This document shows positions 8,530-26,602 of a DNA stretch of 64,000 bases, piece after piece. The stretch spans positions 253,681 through 317,680 of the forward strand of contig CAWBPM010000003.1 of the NCBI GenBank assembly GCA_963790825.1, in the 5' to 3' direction. Position numbers and translations under genes: made by a program. The notes beneath the pieces were generated by a model that did not search any database, was not told the origin of the DNA, and was given only the letters and a program-made list of their open reading frames with translations. Each line of letters opens with the position of its first letter. Position 1 is the first letter of the stretch. This DNA is from Candidatus Levyibacteriota bacterium (GTDB taxonomy: Bacteria; Patescibacteriota; Microgenomatia; Levybacterales; UBA12049).

Positions 8530-10293
8530 ATGGGTGCAGAACAAGCAAAACCGGAAGGTGAAGGAAAACCGGAATATCAAACCCCATTAACCTATGAAGT
8601 AAGAGATTTTCCCAGTATATGGAAGGCTGTTACGGAAGAAACAGGGAAGTATTTAAGGGTCGGTCCTGTTGTCGGTACAGTAGCAAATGCGCCAACTCTT
8701 TTTCTTGGAGATGGCAACGATTTATCTTTCGGACTTAATCTAAAACCATCATTTGCTGGTAATTTGGTTGAATCTACGTTAAGGGACAATGATAAAATAA
8801 GACATCTTTCAGAAACACTTCAAAAGTATCTCGGGGAGGAGTTGCGGGTTAAACCCCGTGAAAGAAAAGCTCAATATAATCTGCTCGGACTTGTTATTTC
8901 AAAAGTTACTACAACAAATGGAAAAGAGGAAGAAAGAGAAGTCGCAACATTTAATCAGGATAATCAGGAATTTAGATTTATAGAACATTTCGATGAGCCA
9001 GTAAATGAAGAACAAGGCAGAGACGCTCTGGAGCAAGCTTTAAAACTCTTCCAGATAACTACAAGCGAATTGTATCGGCTTAATGGTCTTGAAGTACCGG
9101 AAGAAAAAGTAATCATAGAACCGCCTGAGAGAGATAAAAAAATAAATGCAACAGATTTAAAAGAATTAATGAAATTTTTTAGAGAAGATAAGTTGAAAAA
9201 TCATGAGAAAATTTATTTCTCCCCAACAAGAGAAATTATTCCACTGCCTACACCCACACCTGACCATCCTGCTTCTACGGAGACTCCAAGGCCAGGCGAT
9301 AAGTTGGACGAAATAAGACAAAGTTATGCAAAAAATCAGTTTAATGAGATTAAGAAATTATTCGGTACGGGTGGAAGTAGTGATCTGGAAACACTTCGCC
9401 AATCAATAATCGTTGAAGGAGTTCCGGATATTACATTTGATAGCATTGGTGGACAGGCAGCAGCTGTGGAACAAGCACGCCTGCTTGCAGAACAACTAAA
9501 ACACCCTGAAGCTTTCGCAAGATGGGGATCTGAACCGCCCCGTGGAATTATTTTTATCGGTGATCCAGGGAACGGCAAAACATTGATAGCGAAAGCACTA
9601 GCACATGAAGCGGAAGTACCATTTATCATGGTCAAATCGTCTGACCTGGCATCGAAATGGTACGGCGATGCAGAAAAACTGGCAAAGGGTGTATTTCAAA
9701 TTGCCCGTGAAGAAGCTATGCAGCACGGAGGACACGCAATAATATATTTCGATGAGGTTGATTCGCTGATGCCTTCTCGAAAAGGAAACGTACATGAGGC
9801 AACTAGACGGGTCATCGGAACGGTTCTCCAGGAAATTGACGGACTACAAACACAAGAACAGGAAGGAAAACTGATAGTTATCGCCTCCACAAATACACCC
9901 GAAACTGTCGATGATGCTTTTCTGTCACGAATGACAGAATGGGTTGAAGTTCCAAGTCCTGATGCCCAGGGTATCTCTGAAATTCTGGCTATTCAATTTC
10001 AAGCGCAAACTGTAAAGGCTGGACGTGAGTTATTGCAAGAAGGAATTGATTTCAGCCAAGTTGCTTCGGAAATGGTCGGAGTCAGCGGTAGAGATATTGC
10101 CGATGTGGTGCAACGAGTATTATCTTTAAAAGGACAGCAGGAGGCACGTGGTCTAAGTCCCACTGTTGTTACCAAGGAAGATATCCAGAGCGCTATCGTC
10201 TCTTCTGCCAAAGTCCGTCAGGCGAAACTAAATCACAGAAAGGCAACAAGTGGACAAATTGGATTTAGGAATAACTCAGAAAAACCAAGCTAG
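8530..10293 (+). CDS. AAA+ ATPase (classical-clade single AAA module) with ~320-aa N-terminal domain of unknown function
   Basis: GIIFIGDPGNGKTLIAKALAHE (Walker A), IIYFDEVDSL (Walker B), STNTPETVDDAFLSRMTEWVEVPSPD (sensor/arginine-finger region). Confidence 0.75.
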   Translation: MGAEQAKPEGEGKPEYQTPLTYEVRDFPSIWKAVTEETGKYLRVGPVVGTVANAPTLFLGDGNDLSFGLNLKPSFAGNLVESTLRDNDKIRHLSETLQKYLGEELRVKPRERKAQYNLLGLVISKVTTTNGKEEEREVATFNQDNQEFRFIEHFDEPVNEEQGRDALEQALKLFQITTSELYRLNGLEVPEEKVIIEPPERDKKINATDLKELMKFFREDKLKNHEKIYFSPTREIIPLPTPTPDHPASTETPRPGDKLDEIRQSYAKNQFNEIKKLFGTGGSSDLETLRQSIIVEGVPDITFDSIGGQAAAVEQARLLAEQLKHPEAFARWGSEPPRGIIFIGDPGNGKTLIAKALAHEAEVPFIMVKSSDLASKWYGDAEKLAKGVFQIAREEAMQHGGHAIIYFDEVDSLMPSRKGNVHEATRRVIGTVLQEIDGLQTQEQEGKLIVIASTNTPETVDDAFLSRMTEWVEVPSPDAQGISEILAIQFQAQTVKAGRELLQEGIDFSQVASEMVGVSGRDIADVVQRVLSLKGQQEARGLSPTVVTKEDIQSAIVSSAKVRQAKLNHRKATSGQIGFRNNSEKPS

Positions 10294-10327: not shown

Positions 10328-12730
10328 TTACGATACTACTGTCTGTATATTGCCTGAGTCGTCGAGGGTCATTACGACATTATTTCCCCGCTTTATTTCG
10401 TCCCGCAATTCTTTTTGCGCGATAAGATCTTCTATTTTATCCTGTAAATAACGTCTCAAGGGACGGGCTCCAAACTCCGGATCATAACCTTCCTGAGAAA
10501 TTTTAGTAATAATTTTATCATCAAATGTAACTGCAATATCCTGCTCTTTCAGTTTTTCGGTTAAACTCTTAAGCATAAGACGGGCAATTGTCGCTACCTG
10601 ATCTTGGGATAATGATTTAAAAGTTACGACATCATCAAAACGGTTTAACAATTCCGGTTTAAAGATTCTGTTGCTTTGCAGATACTCCATCAGCCGGTGT
10701 TGAAATATTTTATCAATCTGAGTCCCTTTTTCGACTTCTTCCCGGATAAACTCAGCACCGGCATTAGAGGTAGCAATTATAATGGCATTAACAAATGAGA
10801 CTGTATGTCCCTTATTATCGGTAAGACGACCATCTTCAAGTACCTGAAGAAACAAATCTAAAATTCTGGGGTTTGCTTTTTCAAATTCATCCAGAAGAAC
10901 CAGGGAATCCGGATGGTCATGAATTTTATCGGTCAATTCGCCCCGTTCTTCTCCTTCACCGGGTGCCGCACCGAGAAGCCTTTTTACGCCTTCACTGTCC
11001 GAATATTCACTCATATCGAGGCGCACAATATGTTCCTGTCCGCCAAAATAGAGATCCGAGAGTACACGGGCTGTTTCGGTTTTACCAACTCCTGTCGGAC
11101 CTAAGAATAGAAATGAGACGGGTTTATTCGCACTTGCCAGCCCGGACCGAACACGGCGCATTGCCTCGGAGATTGCCGTGATGGCATCATCCTGACCAAT
11201 GATGCGCTCATGTAATTTTTCTTCAAGGTGGAGTAAGAGTTCTTTTTCCTGCGCCTTTGGAGCTGCGACATTCGCATGTGTTTTTTCTTCAAGAGTGCTT
11301 ATTACATCATCATCCGTTACAATATTCGACCTTTTCATTTTGTTCATAGTAACTGCAACTCGATTGGCCGAATCGGTAAGAAGCAGCACTGCGCTCCCGG
11401 GAAGATTCGCATCCTGTTCGTATCTGTCGGCAAAGTTAGCTGCCGCAATAACGCTTCGATATGTAAGGGAAACGCCATTTTTTTCTTCAATTTCCCCTGC
11501 TTTTTCAAAAAGCATCTGCAATGCTACGTCCTTTTCGGGCTCAAGAACTTGTATTATTTCGAATACTGATTTCATGGGGCTGCGCTCTAAATACGCTTTA
11601 TATGCACCGGGCGTCATTGTGGCAATAATCGGCATTCCTCCGTTTTTAAGGTAGGGAAGAAGTGCGCCTGAAAGATCCAGATTATACGATCCGGCTCCCA
11701 TGATGTTTTCAAACTGCGGAATATATAGAATAACGTTTCCGGCATGGGAAATTTCAGCAATAATATTTTGTAAGCGTACCTCCATATTTCCCCTATCTCC
11801 TGCTCCGGCAATAAGCGGTCCTACCATCAGCTCAAGTATTTTTTTATGATTTAAAGTGGAAGAAAGATAGTCGCCAAAACTGTCATACGCTAATGCTTCT
11901 ACCAGACTTTCTTTTCCCGCACCGATTTCGCCAACCAGAATAATATTATTATTTTCTTTTTTTGCCAGTGCCTCACAAATTTCCTGATATTCTCTGCTGC
12001 GTCCCACAATAAGAGCGCGTTTGTTTAGCGAATGGTAGGTAAAATCATCGGTGTATTGTTTGGTTTCAGGCGTCCAGCCGGACATTAACGATTCACCGAT
12101 TCCGTCGCCAAAAAAATGTACACGATAATCTTTTGCATGCTCTTCCTCCGGGTATTCCATTTGTGCCCAAAAGAGAATTTGCATCAGTTCTACGTCTTTT
12201 ATTTTTTTCCTAAAAAGCAATTTTGTTTTTTCTTCCGAAAGCAAAAGGTAGGAGACGAGACAGTCCATAGTCGTTATGTATTCCCCGTTTACACTTTTAG
12301 CAAGTTCGAAGCTATACTGAAGAATATCTTTTTTAGGAATATCAACAAGAGACAGTTCCCCTTTATCCAGACCGATTTTTTCCAGGATAAATAGTATTTG
12401 AGGATAGCGAAGAAGAGCCAGGAGAAATTTCTCAGATGTTGTTTCAGACAAATAAGCAGTCAAAACCGGCATTGTCGCAGAGCTGCCGACATCGGGTGAG
12501 TTGTTTTTCCCAACCGGAGTTTTCGGATGATACCTGTTAATTTTATAGCGGAAAAATGTTTCCGCCATGGCAAGAAGACATAGAAAAAAGATTGAAAATC
12601 TGGGGTATGAATGATTAGTAAGTCCATACAGAGTAAGTGAAGCAAAGAAAAATATTGCCAACAGCCTCACCGTTTTACCAATAGCCGAGTGGATTAACAA
12701 ATAAACATGAACGTACTCGTTAGAATTCAT
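10328..12730 (-). CDS. membrane-tethered Hsp100/Clp-family ATPase paralog; D1 module degenerate, D2 intact
   Basis: Two N-terminal hydrophobic helices; D1 Walker A is GEIGAGKES and Walker B position reads IPQFEN (no DE); D2 is canonical: FLGPTGVGKTETARVLS, LVLLDEFEKA, ATSNAG, GARPLRR. Confidence 0.75.
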   Translation of the reverse strand: MNSNEYVHVYLLIHSAIGKTVRLLAIFFFASLTLYGLTNHSYPRFSIFFLCLLAMAETFFRYKINRYHPKTPVGKNNSPDVGSSATMPVLTAYLSETTSEKFLLALLRYPQILFILEKIGLDKGELSLVDIPKKDILQYSFELAKSVNGEYITTMDCLVSYLLLSEEKTKLLFRKKIKDVELMQILFWAQMEYPEEEHAKDYRVHFFGDGIGESLMSGWTPETKQYTDDFTYHSLNKRALIVGRSREYQEICEALAKKENNNIILVGEIGAGKESLVEALAYDSFGDYLSSTLNHKKILELMVGPLIAGAGDRGNMEVRLQNIIAEISHAGNVILYIPQFENIMGAGSYNLDLSGALLPYLKNGGMPIIATMTPGAYKAYLERSPMKSVFEIIQVLEPEKDVALQMLFEKAGEIEEKNGVSLTYRSVIAAANFADRYEQDANLPGSAVLLLTDSANRVAVTMNKMKRSNIVTDDDVISTLEEKTHANVAAPKAQEKELLLHLEEKLHERIIGQDDAITAISEAMRRVRSGLASANKPVSFLFLGPTGVGKTETARVLSDLYFGGQEHIVRLDMSEYSDSEGVKRLLGAAPGEGEERGELTDKIHDHPDSLVLLDEFEKANPRILDLFLQVLEDGRLTDNKGHTVSFVNAIIIATSNAGAEFIREEVEKGTQIDKIFQHRLMEYLQSNRIFKPELLNRFDDVVTFKSLSQDQVATIARLMLKSLTEKLKEQDIAVTFDDKIITKISQEGYDPEFGARPLRRYLQDKIEDLIAQKELRDEIKRGNNVVMTLDDSGNIQTVVS

Positions 12731-12731
12731 A

Positions 12732-13124
12732 CTATTTAAATAATAGAAATATTGCCAATGCCGGCATTAATACAAACAAACTAATTACTAGAAATTCGCT
12801 AATCAACATTACTAAAAAAATAGTCAGTGTAAAGAGAATAAGTATTGTTTTTGCAAAAATTCCCATACCGATTGAGAAACCGACCAAACCTTTTCTATAT
12901 TCATTTTTTAGTGGCTTAAAAAAAGTGACAACCATCAGCTTTAGAGAGAATAGCTGGAGAAACGCACTGTTGAGCGACTGGAAATATGACAGCATCGTAA
13001 GCGGTGCTTCAATATACCAGAATTGTACGAGAATAAAAGGCAGGGTCGTATAATAGAAATTCATGAGCAGTATCTCTAGTCTAAAAACTTTTCCTCTAAA
13101 TTGCAAATGAGTATTATTTAGCAA
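12732..13124 (-). CDS. small polytopic membrane protein (3-4 TM), hypothetical
   Basis: 130-aa ORF almost entirely hydrophobic; 7-bp gap to upstream clpC-like gene and 1-bp gap to downstream Clp paralog. Confidence 0.4.
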   Translation of the reverse strand: MLNNTHLQFRGKVFRLEILLMNFYYTTLPFILVQFWYIEAPLTMLSYFQSLNSAFLQLFSLKLMVVTFFKPLKNEYRKGLVGFSIGMGIFAKTILILFTLTIFLVMLISEFLVISLFVLMPALAIFLLFK

Positions 13125-13131: not shown

Positions 13132-16041
13132 TTATTCCTGGGTTTCGTTTGGTAAACCGGCGGAAGAAGAAGTAAAGGTTGTGCCTGTTCCCGGAGGAGA
13201 CATTGGATAATTGGGAGTGGGCATGTTATTCATCGGATTTAGCATTCCCGACTCCTGTCCCATATCCTGACCAAACTGAGACATTGGCTGTGGAGTAACC
13301 CCATTTGGTATCTGAGGACTCCCATACGGAGGTAAAGGAGCTTGCGGGAACTCTTGGGACGGGCCGTATTGGTTATTTATTTCTGCGGGAGCGGAGTTCA
13401 TATACGGATTATTTACCGCCTGTGGATTTAGACCACTTGGGAACTGTTGATTAGGATTATACGGCTGATTAAAACCGGCCTGAGGAGGTAATACAGATGG
13501 AGAACCGGGCTGAGGTGGCTGAGTCATATTTGACGAGGGTGCGAATTGATTCTGCGAAGACATTGGTTCGCCCGCTTGCTGATTAGGTTCTGCTGCTTTT
13601 TCTTGACTACCAACCGCATCTGTATGGTTGGATTTAGTAAAGAAATATCCGCCCTTCGCCCCGTCAAAATCAATAAGTATCGCATCTCCGGGAAGAAACT
13701 TTTTTCCAATTATTTCAAGTGCAATTGGGTTTTCTATTCTCGTCTGAACCAGACGGCGAAGCGGTCTTGCACCGTACATAGGATCATACCCTTCATTTGC
13801 GAGTTCACGAAGAGCTGCATCTGTAATATCGACACTAAGTTGCTGCTCTGTAAGTAAACCGCTCGTTTTTTTAATGGCAAGTTTGGTAATACCTACCATA
13901 TCTTCTCTTCGTAAGGGCTTAAAAATAACGATGTCGTCAAAACGATTGAGAAGTTCCGGCCGGAAGAATTTATGCAGTTCCCCGCTTACCACTTCTGAAA
14001 GGTCCTTAAAATCTTTTGCGAGTTGTTCCGCTGTTTTCGGCGTAGGATTAGTTGTATCCTCCTCGCCTAATTTTTCAGTAATCAGGCTGCTGCCAATATT
14101 TGATGTACAGATGATAATCGTATTTTTAAATGAGATCGTATTGCCCTTGTTATCGGTCAGCCGGCCATCCTCTAAAATCTGCAGGAGAATGTTAAAGACA
14201 TCAGGATGCGCCTTTTCAACTTCGTCCAAAAGAACAATCGAGTACGGTTTTATTCTTACGGCTTCGGTTAATTGTCCACCTTCTTCATAGCCGACATACC
14301 CGGGGGGCGCACCAATCAGCTTGGCGACCTCATGCTTTTCCATGTATTCTGACATGTCGAGCCGAATCATTGCGCTTTCCTGACCGAAAAGAATCTCTGC
14401 TATAGTTTTGGCAAGTTCTGTTTTTCCCGTACCCGACGGACCTAAAAAGATGAATGACGCAATCGGCCTCTGTCCGCTTGCCAGTCCAATTCTCCCTCTC
14501 CTGACTGCCTCTGCCACTGCTTTTACTGCTTCCTCCTGATCGATAAGCCGCTCATGGATGCGATCTTCCAGTTTTAACAATTTTTGACTTTCATCCTCTG
14601 TCAATTTCGTGATCGGAATACCGGTCCAATTACTGACTACCTGTTCTATTTGCGATTTTTTTACCTCGTTTCCTGTTGTTTGCCCCTTTGCCTGCATCAT
14701 CTTCACATCTGCAGCAGCTTCGTCAATTAAATCAATTGCTTTATCGGGGAGAAAGCGTTCTCCAATATATTTTTTTGATAATTTAACCGCCTGAACCAAC
14801 GCGTCGTCGGGAATAGTTACCTTGTGAAAGTCTTCGTATTTCGACTTTAATACCTTAAGCATTTCGACTGCTACTTCTTCACTCGGCTCTTCACAAATTA
14901 TCGGCTGGAATCTTCTGGAAAATGCTTTATCTTTCTCAAAATATTTTCGGTATTCTGCTGTCGTCGTCGTACCGATTATCTGCAAGTGTCCTCTTGCCAA
15001 ATGCGGCTTAATAATATTTGATGCATCCATCGCGCCTCCCGTATCACCCGCTCCCATCACCGTGTGTATTTCGTCGATAAAAAGCAGTGTTTGTCCGCTG
15101 CTTGCCATGGCTTCACGAATAACAGAGCGCAACCGTTCCTCAAATTCTCCCCTGTGACTTGCGCCGGCTACCAAAGATGCTACGTCAAGCTGAATAATCC
15201 GCTTTCCCAATAGTTCCTTCGGCACTAATCCTTTCACAATATTTTGCGCCAGACCTTCAATAATTGCCGTTTTGCCAACTCCTGCTTCACCTATTATGAT
15301 CGGGTTATTTTTCGTTCTGCGGAGTAAGATATGAGCAAGTCTATCAATTTCCTTGTCCCGTCCGGCAATCGGATCAAGTTTACCCTCCCGAGCCTGTTGT
15401 GTCAGGTCTACCCCATATTCCTCAAGAACACTTTTTTTGGCCATTGTATAGGATTTATCTTTCGTTAATTTTTCTTCCACCTGCATTTTCCTAACACCTT
15501 GCTCTGCAAGTGAATTAACGCCGATACTCTGAGTTCCGGCAGAAAAAATTGCCAGCAGGACGTCCTCAGGAGCGATGAATCCGGCTCCGCGTTTTTTCGC
15601 TTCCAGATATGCACCTTCAAACACTTGTTTGGTATTTTGACTAAGCAGCGGTATACCGGGAAATCCGTCCGGAATTTCCCGACTTTGAATTTCCCGGGTA
15701 AGCTTCGCGACATCGACATTAAACTCTTCAAGAAGCTTATAGATTTCTTCATCAAAAAGTAATCCCAGAAGTATTTGGTCAACATCAATAAGCTGCTGGT
15801 GAATCCGCACCGATTCCTGCTGGGCGTGGGTTAGTACTTTTTGCGTACGGGAATCCAGATGCGACAGAGCGGACAAGTCTTCTCTTCGCGCCGGATCCAT
15901 GGCTGAATCAGCTATATTATTGTTATCAATAGGAGTCGCCTGCGGAGGCGGAGGTGTCCCCATATTTTGTGTATTTGTATTTTGTTGTGCTGGTGGGTTC
16001 TGATTTCCAGAACTCCTCTGATTGAATAAATTTCCAAGCAT
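13132..16041 (-). CDS. clpC: ClpC/ClpB-type Hsp100 chaperone with Q/N/P-rich N- and C-terminal extensions
   Basis: Clp N-domain repeats; D1 [15 protein letters not shown] / LLFIDEIHT; D2 [17 protein letters not shown] / [29 protein letters not shown] / GARPLRR; short D1-D2 linker (ClpC-like). About 160 aa Q/N/P-rich low-complexity C-tail. Confidence 0.85.
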
Positions 16042-16098: not shown

Positions 16099-19000
16099 TT
16101 ATTTTTTTGTTTCAGGCTCGTCTTCCGCTGACATCTCAAGAGAAGGCTTTGTTATTTTTTGTATAGTTATTAGTTCTTCTGTTTCATATCCTTCTTTCTT
16201 CAGGTTTTCCAGCACGTCTTTGGCTGCTTGTTCTTTTGCTTTCAAATACGCAATAATCTCATTTTGCGAGAATCCGCCAAGCAGCAGGAAAGGCAGGATA
16301 TTTGAAACTGCTTCCATGCCTGCTTTTACTTTTTCAGGTGCTGAGGCTGTCAATAACAGGATTATTTGCTCAATATTTTCGATTTCTTTTACCAACCAGG
16401 TTATTCTGTTTTGTATTACTCCGCCTGGTGCCTCAGGTATATCCATTTTGCTATAGTTTTCCTGCCATAGTTTTTTCACTGTTTCATAATCAGCGACATT
16501 TATTTGTTGCAGTTTATTAACAGAGGGGAAAGACCCTGCAATGTAGCTAAGCAAATACTTCTTTTCTTCTTCCACTTGTAGCCAAACTTCTTCCGCCAAC
16601 TGGTTCTTTTTTTCTTTTTCTGAAAATATTTGATTTTTTATTTTCAGCAAGGCATCTTTTCCTAATTTTTCCGGAAATTCGACTAAAATTGCCTGAGCAA
16701 GCAGATTGCCATTTTCTTTTTCAGCCTGCAGTCTGTTTTTGAGAGATATATATTTCTCTTTTCTTAAAGGATCACTTATTTCCTCAAGATACGTAATATG
16801 CATCAGAACTGTCTTAAGTGCTGAAAGCAGTAGTTCTTCGTCATCAGCGGTTCTTCCGGAAACCGTATGGGCTGCTGTTAAGAGAGAAGTCGCGAGCGGA
16901 TCGAAGGACTTACTTGCCTCAAGGAGTTGCTGTTTTAGATTGCCATACTTACTGCGAAGTTCGGACGAGGTCAAATTATCCGGACGCGATATTCGCTCTA
17001 ATACCTCCCGTACTTTGGCTATGTCTTCTTCTTTCCCGGATACTTGAGCAGGTTGGGATTCGTACCGGACAATATCTCGAAGCGTAGGAAGCGGTAGGTT
17101 GGTAAGCTCCAGCAGTTTTGTATTTACTTGAGGATATGTTAATGCTTTAAGGTTTGTGCCAACCGGAATAGAAGCACGCGCTATTTCTTGATCCGGACTT
17201 TCTATTTCCGAAGCGGTTGTCATATGCCCTACTTCAGAGGTGGTCGCTGTTTTTTCTTTTGCTTCGATTAATGTTTCTTCCTCGTTTGCGTTCTGTTCTA
17301 GATCTTCCAAAACCGTCTTTCCTGCCTGTTCTTTTGCCTTCAAATACGCGACAATTTCTGACTGGGAGAAGCCACCCATCAGAAGGAACGGCAGGACGTT
17401 TGCTACTTCCTGCATGCCGGCTGCTACCTTCTGCTGGTCGGTCGAAGAAAGTAGATCAATGGCTCTAGTTACTTTCTCCAAATCTGATTTTACCCAAGTT
17501 TTCCGATCCATTTGTCCTGTTTCTGCAGTTTGTGGAATAGACATATTCTTGTAGTTATCAGTCCACATAGACTTTACTGCTTCGTAGTCTTCAAGGCTTA
17601 CCTGCTGGATACGATTACTAGTTGGGAGATTGACAGAGGAGGAAGTTACCTGCTTTCCGGTTGTTTGTACGCCGCTTTGCGACATCAGAGAAAGAATATT
17701 TCCTGCCAGTTGGTCTCCTTTTGCCTGTGCATCCATGAGTTTCTGTTTCACTTTTTGTAGATCTGTTTTCTCGGTTTTACTGTTGACACCCAAGAGAGAC
17801 GTGGCAAGTTGATTGCCTTTCTTGCTTTCTTCTTCAAGTTTGGCTTTTATCCTGACATATTGCTGTCTATCTGCAACTGCAGGGATTGAGGATAGGGCAG
17901 AATTTACGATTTGAGAGAGAACTTGAGATATGACTTGTGTCTCTTTGGATACAGTTTGCTTATCTACCTCAGAAAGCAACGTAGTTGCCAACTCATTTCC
18001 TTTCGTACTTTCCTGCATTAACTGGTCTTTCAGTTTTTGTATATCTGAGGCATTCGTTGTTTTCTCAGTTGCAGAGAGAATAGTTGTTGCAAGCGTATTT
18101 CCCTGCCTGCTCTCTTTGAGAAGGGTTTCTTTCAGTATGTTTATCCGCTCCCGATCGGTTGTAGAGGTTACTACTTCTTGTGGATTAGCAATTTGCGTCA
18201 GTACGTTTTGCAAAGATGAGACGCTTGGCTGGGATAGGATATTTTGGCTAGTTGTTGCAGACTGCAGTGCAGTGAGTATTGATGTTGCCAGGACGTCTCC
18301 TGTCTGGCTTTGTTTAGTGAGTTCACTTCGCATCTTGGTATACTGGTCACGCTCCTGCGCATTACTCAATGCCTCGGGATTTTGCAGATTTCGCATTGCT
18401 TCTTGTAATTTGACTAACTCTGTGGACTTTTCTCGGGAGGAAGAATTCATCGATGTTTCAAATTTCGCAATATCCCGAAGTGTCGGAAGCGACAAGTTGG
18501 TAAGTGTCAGTATTTTCGTATCAACTAGAACAGGAGTCGAAGCTGTGGTTATGGTAGGCGTTTGGTACGCCTCTTCCTCGTCCGCTGTTCTTGAAATTGT
18601 CAAATGCTGAGGGACTGTGGTTGTTTCACGTTTTACCTCAACAGTTGTATCCTCTTCCTCATTCGTTGAGGAAATTAACTCTTCCAGTACTACTTTTCCT
18701 GCTTGTTCTTTTGCTTTAAGATAGGCAACAATCTCCGACTGGGAGAAGCCACCCATCATCAGGAACGGGAGAATATTTGATACTTCCCGCATACCCGCTG
18801 CTACCTTCTGCTGCTCGGTTGAGGAGAGGAGATCAATCGTTCGGGAAATATTCTCTAGGTCATTCTTAATCCAGGTTTTTCGATCTGTTTGTCCAGTCTC
18901 GATACTTTGTGGTACATCCATGTTTTTATAATTCTCGGTCCACATGGATTTAACTGCTTCATAATCCTCAAGATTTACTTGCTGTACCCGATTCGCAGTG

Positions 19001-22000
19001 GGCAGTGGAGTCGTAAGAGTACCGGCTTGTGTCTGTGTTTGGTATTGCTGTTGAAGCATAAGGCCTAGGATTTGGGCAGCATTCTTATCCCCTTTATCGC
19101 GGGCGTCCATGAGTCTTTGCTTTAACTTCTGCACATCGCTGGTTTGAGTTTTAGAATCAGTAGTTAAAGCTTGTCTATTAATTTCTGATAAGACAGAGGT
19201 CGCTAACCCATTTCCTTGTTTACTCTCTTTTGTTAATGTGTCTTTCAATTGTTGTATTCCTGCTGCACTTGTCGTTTCTTTAGTGGCTGAAAGAATTGAT
19301 GTAGCAAGTGTATTGCCTTGTTGACTTTCTTTTACCAAGGTTTCTTTTAGTGTTGATATTCGCTCGCGATCAACAGTTGAGGTAGTGACAGAGGCAGGAT
19401 TCGCAAGATGCTCCATTACTTGAGACATTACTTGCATATCTCTCGATGCGCTTTGTTTATCTACCTCAGACAGAAGAGATGTAGCAAGTGTATTGCCTTG
19501 TTTACTCTCTTTCACCAATTGATCTCGTACCTTCTCCATCTCTGAAGTACTGGTCGTCCTCTCCGTCGCTGAAAGAATTGATGTAGCAAGTGTATTGCCT
19601 TGTTTACTCTCTCTGACTAATGTCTCTTTCAAAGCCGTAATTCGCTGCCGATCGGTCGTTGAAGTTGTGATAGACTGGGGATTGGCTAATTGTTCAAGGA
19701 CGCTTGACATAACTTGCGTATCTTTGGATATACTTTGTCTATCCATCTCGGAGAGTAAGGTTGTGGCAAGCGTATTCCCTTTTTCGCTTTCTTTGATTAA
19801 TTGTTCTTTGACTTTTTGAATTTCAGTATTGTTAAGTGTTTTTTCTGACGAGGAGAGTAAAGTGGTTGCCAATGTATTATTTTTCTCTTTACTTTCCGAT
19901 ACTAATTTTTCTTTAAGAGTCGTTATCCTTTCCCGTTCCGTTCTCTCTGTTATTTTTTCAGGGGAGGCAAGCTCTGTAAGAAGCTGTGACAACTCTGTAT
20001 TTTGGACTTGCGTCGTGCTTGTAGCAGTTGAGAGAATAGTCGTTGCAAGCGTATTTCCTTTTTGGCTTTCTGATACTAATTCACCTCTGAGATTACTGTA
20101 TACTTCTTGATCTTTTGCAGTTTGGACTGCGGCAGGATTGGCAATTTGCCCAAGGACCTGTGAGAAGGCTTTCGTATCTGTTGAGACAGATTGCCTGTCC
20201 ATTTCAGACAGTATTGTTGTTGCAAGCGTATTGCTCTGTCTACTTTCTTTAACCAACTGGTCTCTTACTTTATCCATTTCAGATGTATTTGTTGTTTTCT
20301 CAGCTGCAGAGAGAATAGTTGTTGCAAGCGTATTTCCTTTTTCGCTTTCTTTGAGAAGCGTTTCTTTAAGCGCTGTAATCCGCTCCCGATCGGTTGTAGA
20401 CACAACTGCTGGATTGGCAATTTGCCCAAGGATCCGGGATAACTGCTGTGACTCCCGAGCCGACGTGTTATTTGAGGCAGTAAATGTATTATTTGCAGCA
20501 TTAAGAATAGTCGTCGCCAATACATTTCCCTTTTCACTTTCTTTGACTAAGTGTTCCCGAATTTCTTTATAATGCTCACGATCTCTCGTATTTGTCAGAA
20601 TTTCGGGATGGGCAATCTGCTCCAGAGACTGCTGCATAGTAGAAACTTCTTGTTGTTTCTCTTTGTTGGTCGATAATATGCTTGTTTCAAAACGTGCAAT
20701 ATCCTGCATTTTTGGCACACTCAGATTTGTTAAGCCTAACAGAACTATATCTGCTGGCAGTGGCTTTGCCAGTCCGGCAGTCGATGATTTTGTAATGTTA
20801 TTTTCTGTATTTATTGCTTCATTGGAACTGGCAGGTATTGCTTTTGCTAATCCCGCTCCCCGACCGGGCAAATTGAATTTCGGCGTAAAAGGCAACACGC
20901 GTCCCAGACCAAATGACGGAGCAGGACCGGGAGGAGCCGCCGGATTGACGGGAACAGGCGGGGCACCACCCAGGAAGGCACTACTTCTATTTCGGATATT
21001 TTTAATGACTGAATTTTCAGCATAGTTATAATTGGTCGCATAATCCAGGAAAATTTGTAAGAGAATCCATGGTACAATAATCACCATCCAGAGCATTAAA
21101 AGAGCAACTAAATATAAGGCAAATGTTTCGGGTAAATTAAGACTATTATTACAGGGCGTGGTAGCTGTATTATTGTAACAGACAGTTTGTCCCGGGCCAC
21201 CAAGAAGAATATTAATGGCAGTCGGAAAAATGTCATTAGTTGGATCCCAAATGTTTCCTGCAAGCGGCTTTAGTGGTTGGTCTAATGTGGCATAATTGCT
21301 GTAATCATGAGGAATAAAGTTTAGAGGTACACCAGCTCGCCATACTTGAACCAACCCTGCCAGGAAAATAGCAAAAAGCGGAGCATAGAGAGCCCAGCGG
21401 AAAAATTCGCCTATCCAGATTTTGGCTGTATTTCGCACAGGATAATATAGTAAAAGCAGAGGGAAAATAGGAGAAACAATAATAAAAAACCATAGAATAA
21501 TTCTGCGGATTATCAGAATAATCACCATCACGTAGTAAGTAAGTGCGGTTAATTTTACAAACAGTAATGAAACAAATGCGGATTCATTGTTCATGTCTCC
21601 CGTTAAGCGAAGTCCGATAAACTGTGTGTAATCCCATCCGACGTAAAGCAAATTTCCCTGCCATATTTCAGGATGCGCGATGTTCGTAGCGGTATCGGGG
21701 TTTTTGAGAAAAAATCCCTGGATAATATCGGTTATCTGGTAAATAAATTGAATGAGCGCATAAGAAAAAGTCACCAAAAGTATGACAGCGATAAAACGCG
21801 GAATAAAACGACGAACTCCTATACTTCTTCCCCGGGTAGAAATAATAATAAAAGCTGTAATTAAGACAAAGAGAACAAAAAACGCATAGACAATGTTACG
21901 AATTGTTACCCAGAAAGGAAGCAATGGATCGGTTCCGCTGGTGACGGAATTCAATTGTTCCCAGTCATAGTTCTGAAGCGACCAGTCAAGAAGAAGTCCG

Positions 22001-22542
22001 GACCTGGCAGCATTTTTTCCATCAAAAGTTACTTCCGAATCGGGGATAAAGATATTATCGGGAACAACATCTGTAGCGGCAGTGGCAACCGGTGCAGGAG
22101 CTACTGCGGCAGCTACGGTAAATAATAATCCACTTACTACATTTCCATTTCCGCCCGCATCACAGGGACTTACTGCAGGATTTGGGGTTAGCGCACATGC
22201 AGCTCCTACTGGAGAACCAACTGTAACTGAATAGGAGCAACTTGCAGATGCTACGCCTGCAATTGTCGTACAAGTATAACCAGCCGGCGGCGTGTAATTG
22301 ACAGCATACGTACCGGCATTAAGATTTGTTATTGTAAAACTAGCCTGTATAGCAGTGCCGGATTGAATTGGAGCAGGACCTGGAGGTAAAGTAGTAATAT
22401 TCCAGGTTCCTCCGACATTGGCTGCAGAGAAGTTTACCTGGATAGAACAATTATTCGTACAAAGAGCAGCAAATACGGAATGCGGAGAGAAATAAAGAAA
22501 AAATGCCAAGAAAAAGAAAAAAACGGACAGAAATTTTTTCAT
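16099..22542 (-). CDS. giant (2147 aa) secreted/polytopic membrane protein: signal peptide + Cys-containing ectodomain + ~6 TM helices (VirB6/TrbL-like topology) + ~1500-aa repetitive hydrophilic tail
   Basis: MKKFLSVFFFFLAFFLYFSPHSVFA signal. TM block VYAFFVLFVLITAFIIIS ... IILWFFIIVSPIFPLLLLYY ... LYLVALLMLWMVIIVPWILL. Tail has three ~350-450-aa super-repeats, each ending in ...DYE(A/T)VK..W..NY..M.IP......R.TW...........LL..........AGM.EV.N.LPFL..GGFSQ.EI.AYLKAKEQA.K, plus many ~50-90-aa GNTLAT(T/S)ILS units. Confidence 0.7.
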   Translation of the reverse strand: MKKFLSVFFFFLAFFLYFSPHSVFAALCTNNCSIQVNFSAANVGGTWNITTLPPGPAPIQSGTAIQASFTITNLNAGTYAVNYTPPAGYTCTTIAGVASASCSYSVTVGSPVGAACALTPNPAVSPCDAGGNGNVVSGLLFTVAAAVAPAPVATAATDVVPDNIFIPDSEVTFDGKNAARSGLLLDWSLQNYDWEQLNSVTSGTDPLLPFWVTIRNIVYAFFVLFVLITAFIIISTRGRSIGVRRFIPRFIAVILLVTFSYALIQFIYQITDIIQGFFLKNPDTATNIAHPEIWQGNLLYVGWDYTQFIGLRLTGDMNNESAFVSLLFVKLTALTYYVMVIILIIRRIILWFFIIVSPIFPLLLLYYPVRNTAKIWIGEFFRWALYAPLFAIFLAGLVQVWRAGVPLNFIPHDYSNYATLDQPLKPLAGNIWDPTNDIFPTAINILLGGPGQTVCYNNTATTPCNNSLNLPETFALYLVALLMLWMVIIVPWILLQIFLDYATNYNYAENSVIKNIRNRSSAFLGGAPPVPVNPAAPPGPAPSFGLGRVLPFTPKFNLPGRGAGLAKAIPASSNEAINTENNITKSSTAGLAKPLPADIVLLGLTNLSVPKMQDIARFETSILSTNKEKQQEVSTMQQSLEQIAHPEILTNTRDREHYKEIREHLVKESEKGNVLATTILNAANNTFTASNNTSARESQQLSRILGQIANPAVVSTTDRERITALKETLLKESEKGNTLATTILSAAEKTTNTSEMDKVRDQLVKESRQSNTLATTILSEMDRQSVSTDTKAFSQVLGQIANPAAVQTAKDQEVYSNLRGELVSESQKGNTLATTILSTATSTTQVQNTELSQLLTELASPEKITERTERERITTLKEKLVSESKEKNNTLATTLLSSSEKTLNNTEIQKVKEQLIKESEKGNTLATTLLSEMDRQSISKDTQVMSSVLEQLANPQSITTSTTDRQRITALKETLVRESKQGNTLATSILSATERTTSTSEMEKVRDQLVKESKQGNTLATSLLSEVDKQSASRDMQVMSQVMEHLANPASVTTSTVDRERISTLKETLVKESQQGNTLATSILSATKETTSAAGIQQLKDTLTKESKQGNGLATSVLSEINRQALTTDSKTQTSDVQKLKQRLMDARDKGDKNAAQILGLMLQQQYQTQTQAGTLTTPLPTANRVQQVNLEDYEAVKSMWTENYKNMDVPQSIETGQTDRKTWIKNDLENISRTIDLLSSTEQQKVAAGMREVSNILPFLMMGGFSQSEIVAYLKAKEQAGKVVLEELISSTNEEEDTTVEVKRETTTVPQHLTISRTADEEEAYQTPTITTASTPVLVDTKILTLTNLSLPTLRDIAKFETSMNSSSREKSTELVKLQEAMRNLQNPEALSNAQERDQYTKMRSELTKQSQTGDVLATSILTALQSATTSQNILSQPSVSSLQNVLTQIANPQEVVTSTTDRERINILKETLLKESRQGNTLATTILSATEKTTNASDIQKLKDQLMQESTKGNELATTLLSEVDKQTVSKETQVISQVLSQIVNSALSSIPAVADRQQYVRIKAKLEEESKKGNQLATSLLGVNSKTEKTDLQKVKQKLMDAQAKGDQLAGNILSLMSQSGVQTTGKQVTSSSVNLPTSNRIQQVSLEDYEAVKSMWTDNYKNMSIPQTAETGQMDRKTWVKSDLEKVTRAIDLLSSTDQQKVAAGMQEVANVLPFLLMGGFSQSEIVAYLKAKEQAGKTVLEDLEQNANEEETLIEAKEKTATTSEVGHMTTASEIESPDQEIARASIPVGTNLKALTYPQVNTKLLELTNLPLPTLRDIVRYESQPAQVSGKEEDIAKVREVLERISRPDNLTSSELRSKYGNLKQQLLEASKSFDPLATSLLTAAHTVSGRTADDEELLLSALKTVLMHITYLEEISDPLRKEKYISLKNRLQAEKENGNLLAQAILVEFPEKLGKDALLKIKNQIFSEKEKKNQLAEEVWLQVEEEKKYLLSYIAGSFPSVNKLQQINVADYETVKKLWQENYSKMDIPEAPGGVIQNRITWLVKEIENIEQIILLLTASAPEKVKAGMEAVSNILPFLLLGGFSQNEIIAYLKAKEQAAKDVLENLKKEGYETEELITIQKITKPSLEMSAEDEPETKK
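16240..20600 (-). repeat. intragenic tandem repeat region (protein-coding): three ~1.1-1.4-kb super-repeats plus ~150-280-bp sub-repeats
   Basis: DNA-level near-repeats: GGFSQ-module coding sequence at ~16245-16300, ~17330-17400, ~18705-18775; gcaagcgtatt(c/g)cc(t/c)t... units at ~18100, 19300, 19480, 19585, 19760, 20040, 20220, 20320. Confidence 0.7.
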
Positions 22543-22556: not shown

Positions 22557-22856
22557 TTACGCACTAAATCCGGGAACATGTAAAATATCAACCAGTACAA
22601 CTTGTACGAAAACGTAACCTAAAATTGCAAATAATATGCCGATTACCGCGTATTTAATGTAGCTTTTCCCTTTATCCAAGGCTTCATGATCTCCTTGAGA
22701 ACTTAGAACAATGTATCCGCCATAAATTAAAAATAAGATTGCCAGACCGCCGATCATACTTAAGCCTATACCGTAAAATTTCTCTACCAGCTGAACCGGG
22801 TCTGTCGGTAAACAACCAAGATCGGTACTAACCGTATTAGGAGCACAAGTATCCAT
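22557..22856 (-). CDS. VirB2/TrbC-like (pilin-like) two-TM hairpin mini-protein, hypothetical
   Basis: 99 aa; ~25-aa hydrophilic N-terminus with 2 Cys, TM1 GIGLSMIGGLAILFLIYGGYIVL, short charged loop, TM2 YAVIGILFAILGYVFVQVVLV; 14 bp upstream of the giant gene. Confidence 0.45.
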   Translation of the reverse strand: MDTCAPNTVSTDLGCLPTDPVQLVEKFYGIGLSMIGGLAILFLIYGGYIVLSSQGDHEALDKGKSYIKYAVIGILFAILGYVFVQVVLVDILHVPGFSA

Positions 22857-22955: not shown

Positions 22956-24740
22956 TTAGTTAAATTTATACTTTTTGCCGTCTATATTCATAATAAAAGA
23001 TTGATTGGCAAGTATATGAGAATAAACAAAAACTATCTCCTGATTAGTCGGATCCAGTTGATAGGCTTTTTTTATTGCATCCAGAGCAGCTTGTTTGTCA
23101 TGCAGTTTAAGTTTAGTAAGTGCCAGAAGTTTCCACAGATCGGAAGAATCCGGTGAATCCGGATAATCCTTTACCGCTTCTTCCAAAAAGTCATTCGCTT
23201 TATTTGGGTCATCGTAATAAACCAAAATCGGTGCGTAATTACGATAAGTTAACAAATAATGCTTATGTTGTAAAACCAGCTGGTACTGCTTTGCATGAAG
23301 CGCCAATTCATAATACTTCTCTGCTTTTTGGAAATCTCCCATTCTCCCATATGTAGCTCCCATATTTTGCAAATTCAGCTCGTTTGGTCTTTGGGAAATA
23401 GATATAGTAAGATGTTTTAGCGCATCACTATATTTATTTATATTTAAATACTCAACTCCGAGGTCATTCTCAATATCAAAATTATCACTAATTAAAATAT
23501 CATAGTTATAAAGAGTAAAAACATCATGCCAATCATTATTTCTGATTATTGTTCTCACTGATAATGAGAGGACAATAATAATTGCAATAAAAACAATGAC
23601 TGACGCATTCATCTTTAGCTTATGAATAATTATCTGGCAAATGATCCCGAATATTCCCAGCAGTCCTACCAGCGGAAAGTAAAACCAGCGGTCTGCAACA
23701 GTCATATCGAGAGGGAAAATCTGAGCTATCATTAAAAATCCCAGGACGAGCCAGGCGGAGAAAAAAAAGAAAGGCTTGGAGAATTGTTTATGATGCTTTG
23801 CGGTATATATACCTACTAAAGTAATAAAAGCAATAAATGACAGATCTATGATGAGCGGGAGATAAAGGGTTGAAAAATGCAGAGAGGTTATTACCCATTG
23901 CTGATCAGTGGCAAGCGTTTTAGGAAAAAAGGACGTTTTGAGATAGTAAAACATGATCATTGGCATATTAAGCAAACGTTCAAACAAAGAGAGACTGGCT
24001 ATGGGAGTTACCGGTCGCGCTGATATATCCACTTGTCCAATAAAAATACGGATAAAAGCGTAGAGACTAATGGTAATAAAACTGCCAATTGAGAGTTTAC
24101 TTAGGTTATTTTTCAAAAAAAGAAAACTATAAATCAGAATCATGCAAACAAAAAGTATCCCTGTTTCTTTTGTGAGTAACGAAAGAAGTGCTAAAGAAAA
24201 AATAATTACAAGTTTTTTACCAGACAGGTTTTCGTTCATAGAAAGCAAGAGTGACAATGCTCCAAAGAGAAAGAAAAGAGGGTTGATCGTCTGTGCAATG
24301 TAAGATACCGCTTCGATGTTGATTGGATGAACCAGAAATACAATTGATAAAAAAAGGGTAATTCCCTTAGAAAAATACTTTTGAAAAAAAATAAAGATAA
24401 TAATTGTACAGATAATATGTAATACCAACTGAAGAAAATGGTAGATAAAAGGTGCATTAGCAAAAGCTGTACAGAGAATAGAGAAGTATAATTCGGGTAT
24501 TGGTCGATATTGTCCGCCGTTATTAAATAGATTATTCCCAAAAGCATAGAACAGATTTATATGATACGTATATAAATTTCTGATTATATACGTATAATCG
24601 TCCCAGACAAATCCGTTGAAAAGCATATTGAAGTAGACGATAAATCCGACGATTGCAATAATATGGATCGCTTTCTTTGTGGTTAGAGGAATAAAGAAAC
24701 GCTTTAGAGAAAACTCCTGTTGGTTGGGCGTATCCTGCAT
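22956..24740 (-). CDS. TMTC-like GT-C family glycosyltransferase (DUF1736-type polytopic N-domain) with C-terminal TPR repeats
   Basis: N-terminal FNMLFNGFVWDD motif and ~10 TM helices; C-terminal TPR-like repeats (ALKHLTISISQRPNELNLQNMGATYGRMGDFQKAEKYYELAL...). Confidence 0.6.
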   Translation of the reverse strand: MQDTPNQQEFSLKRFFIPLTTKKAIHIIAIVGFIVYFNMLFNGFVWDDYTYIIRNLYTYHINLFYAFGNNLFNNGGQYRPIPELYFSILCTAFANAPFIYHFLQLVLHIICTIIIFIFFQKYFSKGITLFLSIVFLVHPINIEAVSYIAQTINPLFFLFGALSLLLSMNENLSGKKLVIIFSLALLSLLTKETGILFVCMILIYSFLFLKNNLSKLSIGSFITISLYAFIRIFIGQVDISARPVTPIASLSLFERLLNMPMIMFYYLKTSFFPKTLATDQQWVITSLHFSTLYLPLIIDLSFIAFITLVGIYTAKHHKQFSKPFFFFSAWLVLGFLMIAQIFPLDMTVADRWFYFPLVGLLGIFGIICQIIIHKLKMNASVIVFIAIIIVLSLSVRTIIRNNDWHDVFTLYNYDILISDNFDIENDLGVEYLNINKYSDALKHLTISISQRPNELNLQNMGATYGRMGDFQKAEKYYELALHAKQYQLVLQHKHYLLTYRNYAPILVYYDDPNKANDFLEEAVKDYPDSPDSSDLWKLLALTKLKLHDKQAALDAIKKAYQLDPTNQEIVFVYSHILANQSFIMNIDGKKYKFN

Positions 24741-24809
24741 GTCATTATGCTAACATTAAAGATAAAGTTATTTCAATTACAATTTGCTTCTTAGAACCAG
24801 CCTCTTTTT

Positions 24810-26602
24810 TTAGTTAAATTTATACTTTTTGCCGTCTATATTCATAATAAAAGATTGATTGGCAAGTATATGAGAATAAACAAAAACTATCTCCTGATTA
24901 GTCGGATCCAGTTGATAGGCTTTTTTTATTGCGTCCAGGGCAGCTTGTTTGTCATGTAATTTAAGTTTAGTAAGCGCCAGAAATTCCCATAGATTCGAAG
25001 AACCTGGTGAATCCGGATAATCTTTTACCGCTTCTTCCAAAAAGTCATTTGCTTTATTTGGATTATCATAATAAACCAAAATCGGTGCGTAGTTACGATA
25101 AGTTAACATAGCATGTTTATGTGGTAAATATGCCCCATAATCATCCGCGTGAAGAGCCAGTTCATAGTATTTCTTTGCATTTTGTATATCTCCCAGCCGT
25201 GTATATACAATCCCAATATTTTGTAAATCTAGTTCATTCGATCTTTGGGAAACAGATAAAGTAAGATGCTTAAGCGCATCATTATATTTATTTATATATA
25301 AATACTCAATTCCAAGGTCATTCTCAATTTCGAAATTATCCTCTACCCTACTATCATGAGCAAAAAGCGTCATGCCGTTATACCAATTGGCGTTACGTAT
25401 TATTGTTCTGACAGAAAAAACAAGAAGAAGCACAATTATGCAGACTACAGCAATCTTAGTAAGCTTTCTGTTAGGAAAAATTGCCTCTTGTACTCCAATA
25501 CCAAGTACTCCAAGTAGTCCAACCATAGGGAAATAGAAATACCGATCGGCTACCGTCATATCCAAAGAAAAGAGTTGCGAATGCATAGTAAGTCCCGACA
25601 AAAACCAGAGGGAAAAGAAAAGAAAAATAGGGAAAGTCTTGCGATTCGATCTAAATGTGTATATTCCCAGAAGAATGAGAAGTACGAAAAAAAGCATATC
25701 GATGAGAAGCGGGATGTAAAAGGTTGATAAAGCAATATTTGTAATAACCCATTTTTGATCAATGGCCAGTTTTAAAGGAAAGAAGAAAGTTTTGAGATAA
25801 TAGAATACAACCATGGGGATATTGATCAGCCGCTGGGTAAACGTTAGGTTACTGATTGGATTATCGAATGTTACCTTTGCAAAGAAGACATGTCCTATGC
25901 CAAAACGCATCAGGAAATACAGGAGAGAGATTATTATTCCGAAAATTACGAAGGTAGACAATTTTTGTCTTTGAAACAAGACTCCATAGACTAAGATGAT
26001 AAATAGAAATAGAATACCGGTTTCTTTTGTCAGAAGACTGCATAATAATAGAAGCGGTATTAATAAGATGTATGATTTTTTATAGTGTATTTTCTACTTA
26101 ACAACAATGCTGAGATTCCGAAAAGAAAAAATAGAACGCTGTTAGCACCAATTATATATGAAACTGACTCAACTTGAATAGGATGAATAAGAAAAAGTAA
26201 GGAGAGAAACAACGCAAGATACCTGGAGAAGAACCTCTTAAATAGAAAATACACCAGTATCGTGTTTACGATATGCAGAAGGAGCTGCGTTATATGGTAG
26301 ATGAAAGAAGTGTCTTGGAATACTGAATACAATAGAGAAGTGTACAGGAAGTATATTGGGCGGTAAAACCCGGCAAAAGAACTATTAAACAAACTTGGGC
26401 CAAATATTGTTGAAAGATTAATTGAATGAACTTGCGGGTTGTTAAGAATATAAGTTATATCGTCCCAGACAAATCCGTTGAAAAGCATATTGAAGTAGAC
26501 GATAAATCCGACGATTGCAATAATATGGATCGCTTTCTTTGTGGTTAGAGGAATAAAGAAACGCTTTAGAGAAAATTCCTGTTGGTTAGACGTATCCTGC
26601 AT
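24810..26602 (-). CDS. second TMTC-like GT-C/TPR paralog, split into 26060..26602 and 24810..25979 by a 1-nt frame disruption in a T6/A6 run (26076..26081)
   Basis: N-terminal 50 aa and C-terminal ~95 aa nearly identical to the upstream paralog (DNA near-identical at 24598-24770 vs 26458-26630 and 22950-23075 vs 24812-24937). Adding one A restores ...TIKKSYILLIPLLLLCSLLTKETGILF..., colinear with copy 1. Confidence 0.55.

Follow-up and report, generated by a model that had tools for sequence, protein, structure and literature searches.

A Levybacterial family of putative extended VirB6/TrbL-like proteins with a cassette-built tail, encoded between a type IV secretion-type pilin gene and atypical Clp/Hsp100 ATPases

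Extended VirB6 proteins are defined by at least five hydrophobic helices together with one or more large central or C-proximal hydrophilic domains, the contribution of which is 'not yet known' (Alvarez-Martinez & Christie; PMC12857230). In the Rickettsiales (Anaplasma VirB6-3 and VirB6-4, and the Rickettsia RvhB6 paralogues), a very large C-terminal extension, hydrophilic and acidic, follows the VirB6 membrane domain and bears repeats, the number of which varies by lineage (PMC3556328; PMC12857230). Type IV secretion system (T4SS) components have likewise already been described from Patescibacteria: in the Saccharimonadia and in a survey of the phylum, monoderm, T4SS-like systems are found that are chromosomal, comprise VirB6 and VirB2-like (PF18895) pilins and have no relaxase (Wang 2023; Quinonero-Coronel 2025, PMC12102498). 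The stretch analyzed here, hereafter the window, comprises 64,000 nucleotides from Candidatus Levyibacteriota bacterium (contig CAWBPM010000003.1, positions 253,681 to 317,680) and carries on its minus strand an uninterrupted open reading frame (ORF; 16099..22542) for a 2147-aa protein, which is, judged from its sequence and predicted structure, probably an extended VirB6/TrbL-like channel subunit. An earlier note on this DNA had described only the tail of the protein; the N-terminal membrane domain and the upstream pilin gene were absent from that description, and it is because of these two features, a VirB6/TrbL-like N-terminal domain and a T4SS pilin gene directly upstream, that the protein is reclassified here as a putative extended VirB6.

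The protein begins with a signal peptide (aa 1-25) followed by an extracytoplasmic region rich in Cys (aa 26-206; together 21925..22542 on the minus strand, to which all coordinates of this gene and of its operon refer), both assigned from sequence, and continues with a VirB6/TrbL-like polytopic membrane domain (aa 207-504; 21031..21924), the assignment of which draws on AlphaFold2 (AF2), Foldseek, Pfam and the distribution of Lys and Arg. The AF2 model of aa 140-600 (predicted local distance difference test score, pLDDT, 79.5; predicted template modelling score, pTM, 0.76) contains five long helices, at aa 207-236, 242-278, 316-356, 367-403 and 471-504, and so has the at least five hydrophobic helices of a VirB6/TrbL protein, while a large hydrophilic domain lies C-proximal to them, as in extended VirB6 (PMC12857230). 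The Pfam TrbL/VirB6 family (PF04610) matched aa 224-395 with E=7e-4 and 19.9 bits when the full protein was searched, and with E=3.3e-4 and up to 20.9 bits when a fragment was used (cutoff 25.9). The same region was matched by PF04610 in 30 of 51 diverse family members, with a best E of 2.8e-7, and some database homologues carry a precomputed match to PF04610 or PF19590. In a Foldseek comparison of the membrane-domain model with the PDB, the top eight matches were all chains of the R388 TrwJ/VirB5-TrwI/VirB6 stalk and Stalk-Arches-IMC entries (7o3v, 8rt9, 8rtd); the best three R388 matches had a probability of 0.98-0.99 but an E-value of just 0.04-0.06 and a root mean square deviation of 9-12 Å, and the target-normalised TM-score of the best five was 0.38-0.50. 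R388 TrwI/VirB6 and PF04610 are the best and the sole coherent structural match, sharing with the window protein the five long hydrophobic helices; TrwI differs in having no large cytoplasmic tail, the sequence similarity is marginal, and no VirB5 partner was recognised in the window. A weak Pfam match to MuF_C (E=8.5e-4) was dismissed, as no single stretch passes.

Because the protein combines a signal peptide with five membrane helices, its predicted orientation is N-terminus outside and C-terminus inside (N-out/C-in), the orientation reported for Agrobacterium VirB6. The density of Lys plus Arg, computed over the 51 family members, was high at aa 237-247 (2.5 per 10 aa), 345-347 and 367-375 and low at aa 279-320 and 401-470; after the last helix (aa 501-530) it reached 2.9, against 1.2 for Asp plus Glu. 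This charge distribution is compatible with an N-out/C-in topology with five transmembrane (TM) helices. The ectodomain contains six Cys residues, the 1642-aa tail none. Given the five helices with a signal peptide, the positive-inside charge and the restriction of Cys to the ectodomain, the tail is most likely cytoplasmic. Membrane domain and tail are connected by a basic linker rich in Pro, Gly and Asn (aa 505-600; 20743..21030; 14.7% Pro; isoelectric point, pI, 10.3), which is predicted from its composition and a pLDDT below 50 to be disordered. At the other end of the protein, aa 26 to ~156 (22075-22467) form an extra ectodomain, Cys-rich and Pro/Thr/Asn-rich; aa ~26-140 are missing from most homologues, whose alignments begin at query aa ~140-165, equivalent to homologue residue ~25, and this region may be a lineage-specific surface domain.

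The tail comprises the 1642 hydrophilic residues that follow the last TM helix, and is composed of three super-repeats (SR1 to SR3), in each of which a conserved head motif is followed by GNxLAT helix-turn-helix hairpins, which vary in number, and then by a ~115-aa GGFSQ..AYLKAKEQA helical bundle (the GGFSQ module or C-module). in SR1 (aa 601-1300; 18643..20742) the head motif, at aa 600-622, precedes 11 hairpin units and C-module 1 (aa 1181-1299; 18646..19002); SR2 (aa 1341-1760; 17263..18522) has its head motif at aa 1343-1365, five hairpin units and C-module 2 (aa 1640-1759; 17266..17625); and SR3 (aa 1809-2147; 16102..17118) has its head motif at aa 1809-1831, ~3 degenerate hairpin units and C-module 3 (aa 2006-2125; 16168..16527). 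The C-modules were delimited by hidden Markov model (HMM) envelopes and alignment. The head motif LTNL[SP][LV]P..(R/Q)DI..(F/Y)E(T/S), which opens each super-repeat, is found at aa 604, 1347 and 1813, DYE[AT]VK at aa 1193, 1652 and 2018, GGFSQ at aa 1264, 1723 and 2089, and AYLKAKEQA at aa 1273, 1732 and 2098. While self-blastp of the entire protein gave the diagonal only, blastp of segment against segment returned E-values of 4e-114 for SR1/SR2, 4e-47 for SR1/SR3 and 8e-49 for SR2/SR3, and by these values the three-copy repeat structure is real and far above chance level.

The earlier note had thus recognised the three super-repeats correctly, as well as the several GNTLAT-type units in each of them and the closing module at the end of each, but its measures need revision. 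The super-repeats are not ~400 aa each but ~700, ~420 and ~340 aa; the closing module does not span ~95 aa from DYE but ~115-120 aa, beginning ~12 aa ahead of DYE at P..N..Q.V; and although module 3 is the last element of the protein, 22 acidic residues still precede the stop. The spacing of the GNxLAT units alternates between 34 and ~60 aa (102 and 180 nt), giving a double unit of ~94 aa (282 nt). With an HMM, 17 units were counted in the window protein, more than in any other of the 242 family members gathered up to then. SR1 and SR2 consist of 20-24% Ser plus Thr, and the tail is acidic (pI 5.4, net charge -25).

In an alignment of 72 diverse copies of the module, G90, G91, E96, Y100, K104 and A107 are invariant, and the segments P..N..Q.V..DYE..W..NY and ILPFLLxGGFS are near-invariant. 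The AF2 model of aa 2000-2147 (mean pLDDT 84.8, core >90) predicts C-module 3 to be a compact helical bundle, with helices at model residues 17-33, 47-65, 70-83, 85-89 and 94-130 and the GGFS turn placed ahead of the long C-terminal helix. That the module resembles no described domain, as had been suspected from the sequence, was confirmed within the databases searched: it retrieved no family from Pfam at E<=10 and none from NCBIfam, the best match of the C-module profile to PDB sequences had E=0.05, and the best Foldseek E-values were 0.88 (PDB) and 0.37 (BFVD). Homology to a designed armadillo protein was rejected, only a short 'LLsSxDxE' motif being shared (E=0.05), and kinship of the C-module with the hairpin units was likewise rejected (hhalign probability 0.3%).

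The GNxLAT units are treated here as generic helix-turn-helix hairpin repeats. Their pattern, L..E...GN.LA...L, is faintly reminiscent of Sel1-like repeat turns. The best PDB match of their profile was the turn of a Sel1-like repeat (E=0.039, over 12-residue stretches, not significant), and no Pfam TPR or Sel1 match was found on SR1-SR3. The likeness to Sel1-like/TPR repeats lies in the 34-aa period of the short units and in a 'kAAeqGNpiAq'-like turn between two helices; the window units differ from such repeats by their alternation of 34 and ~60 aa with Ser/Thr-rich connectors, and the match is non-significant. In the tails of four distant members of the family (P0140, P0142, P0141 and P0139; loci L005 and L006), many sub-threshold matches to the helix-turn-helix (HTH) core were observed, with summed partial Pfam matches to Sigma70_r3 (7.6e-9), TrmB (2.2e-8), HTH_23, Sigma70_r4, HTH_IclR and others. 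These sums would fit a tail that binds nucleic acid, in which the GNxLAT hairpins are degenerate HTH units retaining DNA at the channel as it is taken up or exported. We consider this very unlikely: no single stretch passes in the distant members, the super-repeats of the window have no HTH match in Pfam even at E<=10, the unit profile matches no HTH protein in the PDB, and the tail has the acidic pI and negative net charge given above.

At the DNA level, direct-repeat families in the gene recur at 102, 180 and 282 nt and at 1098, 1377 and 1497 nt. Recurrence at such periods had been pointed out before and is indeed seen, but the identity of the copies is only 60-81%, none of these repeats was reported by Tandem Repeats Finder (TRF), and the longest exact direct repeat is 37 nt. 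The codon-aligned C-modules have a nucleotide identity of 57-74% against an amino-acid identity of 50-79%, and the same codon is used at only 40-58% of identical residues; this combination of identity and codon divergence therefore points to long-standing purifying selection on the protein sequence, not to recent slippage. The gene had been expected to be prone to slippage, recombination and assembly collapse, an expectation that finds no support in view of the age and divergence of the copies, the TRF result and the positional orthology described below. Since the DNA copies have diverged and share no exact repeat longer than 37 nt, slippage or assembly collapse appears unlikely. An early genome assembly of Anaplasma collapsed the near-identical VirB6-4 repeats (PMC3556328), a precedent for a repeat structure created by the assembly or for an array that expanded recently, is prone to slippage and has an unreliable copy number; for the window gene we regard this as extremely improbable in view of the low DNA identity of the copies, the shortness of the exact repeats, the lack of a TRF array, the unbroken ORF and the occurrence of the same cassette order, in 1-5 copies, in independent genomes. 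In a metagenome scan for close relatives that could inform on strain-level copy number, the nearest was 36% identical, and the 90%-identity cluster of the window protein has one member.

The tail thus resembles those of the Rickettsiales extended VirB6 proteins in its size, hydrophilicity, acidity and lineage-dependent repeat number, and differs from them in several respects. The Anaplasma repeats are near-identical, strain-variable DNA tandem repeats, whereas the window copies are ancient (57-74% DNA identity) and positionally orthologous; near-identical tandem repeats of the VirB6-4 type were not found in the window gene (57-81% identity, none by TRF). No sequence or fold kinship was found between the Rickettsiales tails and that of the window, and the host of the latter is a monoderm Patescibacterium in which the gene is linked to a pilin gene and Clp ATPases, not to an array of virB6 paralogues.

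More than 120 full-length homologues were found, from Patescibacteria, and in a scan of one genome per species relatives were present in 289 genomes, the informative names among which were Levybacteria/Levyibacteriota (Microgenomatia). The cassette is confined to this VirB6-like family: an exhaustive search with the C-module HMM retrieved 344 of 1.84 billion protein clusters at 50% identity, and module and membrane domain occurred together in 202 of 242 retrieved proteins, the other 40 being mostly short and fragment-like. The family is a good candidate for the VirB6 missing from Microgenomatia in the phylum-wide survey, where VirB6 was described as 'scarce', 'suggesting extreme sequence divergence' (PMC12102498).

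The earlier note had proposed comparing the repeat number among strains or metagenome bins; among relatives it varies, from one to five copies per protein. Among 75 complete genes of species representatives, 48 have one copy, 21 two and six three; among 265 complete proteins, one, two, three, four and five copies are found in 103, 119, 38, 3 and 2, respectively. When the nearest neighbour of each module was sought in other proteins, first modules paired with first modules in 113 cases and last with last in 108, and single-copy modules were nearer to the 'first' than to the 'last' class in 100 of 103 cases. From this positional orthology and the proximity of single copies to the first class we therefore infer that the membrane-proximal cassette is ancestral. 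The C-terminal cassette appears from the sequences to have been added once, long ago, and to have since diverged, so that 'last' modules constitute a separate, older class, and middle copies appear to be later duplicates of the first cassette. In the window protein, C-modules 1 and 2 are 76-79% identical and C-module 3 is 50-55% identical to either; SR2 is by its sequence a recent duplicate of SR1. Sequence comparison thus indicates that the tail has grown by the appending or duplication of whole cassettes and by the expansion of hairpin units.

The gene order in the window is hrcA-grpE-dnaK-(102-aa ORF)-dnaJ-(three PMT/TPR ORFs)-pilin-virB6L-clp969-orf130-clp800, with nusA and infB further downstream; virB6L denotes the VirB6-like gene. 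The VirB2-like T4SS pilin gene (99 aa; 22557..22856) has its stop codon 14 bp ahead of the virB6L start; it is followed, 57 bp downstream of virB6L, by the Clp/Hsp100 ATPase gene clp969 (969 aa; 13132..16041; identified with Pfam), 7 bp after that by orf130 (130-aa multi-TM ORF, recognised from its sequence; 12732..13124), and, with an overlap of 1 bp, by a second Clp-like ATPase gene, clp800 (800 aa; 10328..12730). No terminator-like site was listed by a scan between these genes. A search for the canonical CIRCE heat-shock operator, which would have pointed to co-regulation by HrcA, gave no match at up to three mismatches. The pilin matches Pfam T4SS_pilin PF18895 (E=4.6e-6; 27.1 bits, cutoff 26.6) and, under the cutoff, NCBIfam NF045849 (Mbov_0395, a pilin-like conjugal transfer protein of a Mycoplasma integrative and conjugative element; E=3.4e-7). 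An equivalent small ORF is located directly upstream of the VirB6-like gene in loci L001-L003.

Conservation of this arrangement was assessed on loci of species representatives, the count for Clp being limited to the 68 loci with at least 3 kb of downstream sequence. In 58 of the 68, at most 200 bp separate the VirB6-like gene from a Clp969-type gene downstream of it, and in seven more at most 1.6 kb. In 41 of 54 loci the pilin gene was detected at a distance of at most 200 bp upstream, a number that is probably an undercount as it comes from a single-sequence search, and DnaJ lies at most 10 kb upstream in 35 of 54 only. By these numbers the pilin-VirB6L-Clp trio is better conserved than its link to the dnaK operon. 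With the T4SS-like systems described from other Patescibacteria the window shares a monoderm host, a VirB6-like protein, a VirB2-like (PF18895) pilin, a chromosomal location and the lack of a relaxase. The survey of Patescibacteria places T4SS genes near virB4 and dnaA (PMC12102498), whereas the pilin-VirB6 pair of the window is in a dnaK/clp region, with no virB4 seen in 64 kb; Clp is not mentioned in the main text of that survey. In L003 (6402-8063), and also in L008, L009, L026, L036, L054, L057 and L064, a ~450-550-aa gene with no Pfam match is located between the VirB6-like and Clp genes (~1.4-kb gap), and in L001 a VWA_2 gene lies between clp800 and nusA.

Clp969 consists of a Clp_N domain and two intact AAA+ rings (D1 and D2). 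Its M-domain is reduced to ~15 aa before VVSNWTGIP, D2 has no ClpP-binding IGF loop ([ILVM]G[FL]), and aa 1-60 and aa ~800-969 are Q/N/P-rich and of low complexity. The M-domain of ClpB is required for cooperation with DnaK. Against the NCBIfam models Clp969 scored 887 bits for ClpB (cutoff 1232), 713 for ClpA (993) and 696 for ClpV (TIGR03345; 885); an assignment as ClpB, ClpA, ClpC or ClpV equivalog was rejected, the scores being under the cutoffs and the M-domain and ClpP loop being absent. A homologue search retrieved Levybacterial orthologues only, 66-80% identical and 834-1297 aa long. In Clp800, two TM helices at the N-terminus precede a D1 that is degenerate (its Walker A reads GEIGAGKE, and Walker B is missing) and a D2 that is intact; the sequences suggest that orf130 and Clp800 constitute a membrane-anchored Hsp100 pair, and their pairing is kept in L001 and in L007-L012 except L011.

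We tentatively favour, at somewhat less than an even chance, an extended VirB6 whose cytoplasmic cassette tail scaffolds docking under the channel, with the downstream Clp/Hsp100 as its likeliest client. The protein would serve as a polytopic inner-membrane channel subunit (VirB6/TrbL type) of a type IV secretion or pilus-like apparatus and would be co-transcribed with the VirB2-like pilin, while its tail would provide a multivalent docking scaffold on the cytoplasmic side of the channel. The likeliest client would be Clp969, encoded immediately downstream and devoid of M-domain and ClpP loop, whose N-domain might bind the head or GGFSQ elements and bring the unfoldase to the translocon; more cassettes would then mean more binding sites and a longer reach. 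ClpV, an Hsp100 dedicated to the type VI system, is a precedent for an unfoldase at a secretion machine; through its N-domain it recognises a helical element in a structural component. Docking of the co-operonic unfoldases, for which the earlier note had suggested the GGFSQ module, is plausible given the nearness of a Clp969-type gene in most loci and the predicted cytoplasmic location of the tail. Clp969 shares with ClpV/TssH the ClpB-family double AAA+ ring without ClpP-binding loop and the location inside a secretion-system cluster, and differs from it in its score under the ClpV cutoff, in the lack of the M-domain, in the absence of type VI secretion genes and in having a client, the VirB6 tail, that is hypothetical.

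Several observations weigh against this reading. The TrbL score of the window protein (~20-21 bits) is under the Pfam cutoff, the Foldseek E-values and TM-scores are modest, and a profile of the whole family retrieved no VirB6 from the PDB sequences, only low-complexity matches (e.g. huntingtin polyQ). The topology is a prediction, and a reading with six TM helices would place the tail outside. No VirB4, VirD4, VirB3 or VirB8 was found among those ORFs of the 64-kb window, 150 aa or longer, that were scanned against Pfam; an ORF of 740 aa (31765-33987, plus strand) has no Pfam match at the thresholds used. Docking of Clp is proposed from gene neighbourhood; neither Clp nor dnaK adjoins the module-bearing gene in three distant members (33-35% identical in the membrane domain), one of which has two T4SS_pilin genes close by, and a Clp neighbour is likewise missing at three of the 68 loci, whose genes also carry the module. 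Finally, the cluster lies within a heat-shock region (hrcA-grpE-dnaK-dnaJ ... clp), so the Clp adjacency could be inherited gene order.

This last point leads to a tail unrelated to Clp, in which it would be a structural or oligomerisation scaffold (for example a platform for substrates or for T4SS ATPases of the VirB4/TrsD type, or else a spacer or cage beneath a pentamer of VirB6) and the pilin-VirB6 pair would have been inserted into a heat-shock gene order. The presence of hrcA, grpE, dnaK and dnaJ upstream and of nusA and infB downstream in the window, L001 and L002 fits this account, as do the distant members that retain the module without Clp and the conservation of the Clp969 orthologues (66-80% identity), which far exceeds that of the VirB6-like protein, as for a housekeeping chaperone. 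It is nevertheless rather unlikely in our judgement, since the Clp gene remains at most 200 bp away in 58 of 68 loci, also where the nearest 10 kb no longer contain DnaJ, Clp969 is non-canonical and lacks the M-domain of ClpB, and the second Clp has a membrane anchor.

In the window, dnaJ is separated from the pilin gene by an insertion of three ORFs (22956-26602, minus strand) that match PMT_2 (protein O-mannosyltransferase-like) and TPR, of which the 180-aa and 389-aa ORFs may be pieces of one disrupted gene resembling the 594-aa one; no such ORFs are present at that position in L001 and L002. Glycosyltransferase-like genes of this type just upstream would suit a tail that is exported, either threaded through the channel or cleaved and released, to be surface-exposed or delivered to the host after being unfolded and fed by the Clp unfoldases. 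Export has been proposed for the Rickettsiales extended VirB6 proteins, with evidence of surface exposure (PMC3556328); the window tail, all-helical and Cys-free, with 20-24% Ser plus Thr in SR1 and SR2 and with disordered linkers, should unfold easily, and an unfoldase is co-encoded. We find this unlikely, because neither cleavage sites nor secretion signals are in evidence, the PMT genes lack conservation at this position, and the conserved compact GGFSQ bundle with its positional orthology points to a stable intracellular domain and not to a variable surface antigen.

The docking-scaffold reading can be extended to a minimal pilin and VirB6 module that, in Levybacteria-type Patescibacteria, is coupled, through the GGFSQ and head cassettes, to dedicated Hsp100 unfoldases, namely the soluble, M-domain-less Clp969 and the membrane-anchored Clp800 with its dead D1. 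In this specific form we hold the proposal to be improbable; if true, a type IV-like pilus or translocon would be powered or supplied by a route not known before, comparable to the use of ClpV in type VI secretion, and a Clp-coupled machine could be central to the interaction of the episymbiont with its host. For the epibiotic growth of such organisms, T4SS genes have proved essential. Extended VirB6 proteins and Patescibacteria T4SS components are known already; new, as far as we found in the T4SS literature searched, are the Levybacterial family, the cassette with its undescribed GGFSQ domain, growth with positional orthology, and the conserved operon with atypical Clp/Hsp100 ATPases, the association of which with a T4SS-type pilin/VirB6 pair is kept in 65 of 68 loci. 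The family would fill the VirB6 gap for Levybacteria (289 species-representative genomes). It also contributes a new, predicted well-folded domain, the GGFSQ bundle, with a clear pattern of modular growth, and offers a concrete hypothesis for the tail where reviews call the function of extended VirB6's large hydrophilic domains unknown (PMC12857230).

Other genes of the window include a 587-aa single-ring AAA ATPase (8530-10293, plus strand), which is CDC48/PAN/FtsH-like, is transcribed divergently from the adjoining Clp genes and has a long N-terminal region with no family match, and a 338-aa ORF (4761-5777, minus strand) with no Pfam match at the thresholds used. Two adjoining ORFs of ATP-citrate-lyase type (46695-49675, minus strand), one with Citrate_bind and ATP-grasp domains and the other with a CoA-ligase and a citrate-synthase C-terminal domain, are surprising in a small Patescibacteria genome. 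A SAM riboswitch (Rfam RF00162; 59640-59744, plus strand) was recognised with 49.7 bits, over the gathering score, and near it is located an integrase gene of the rve family (58070-59338, minus strand).

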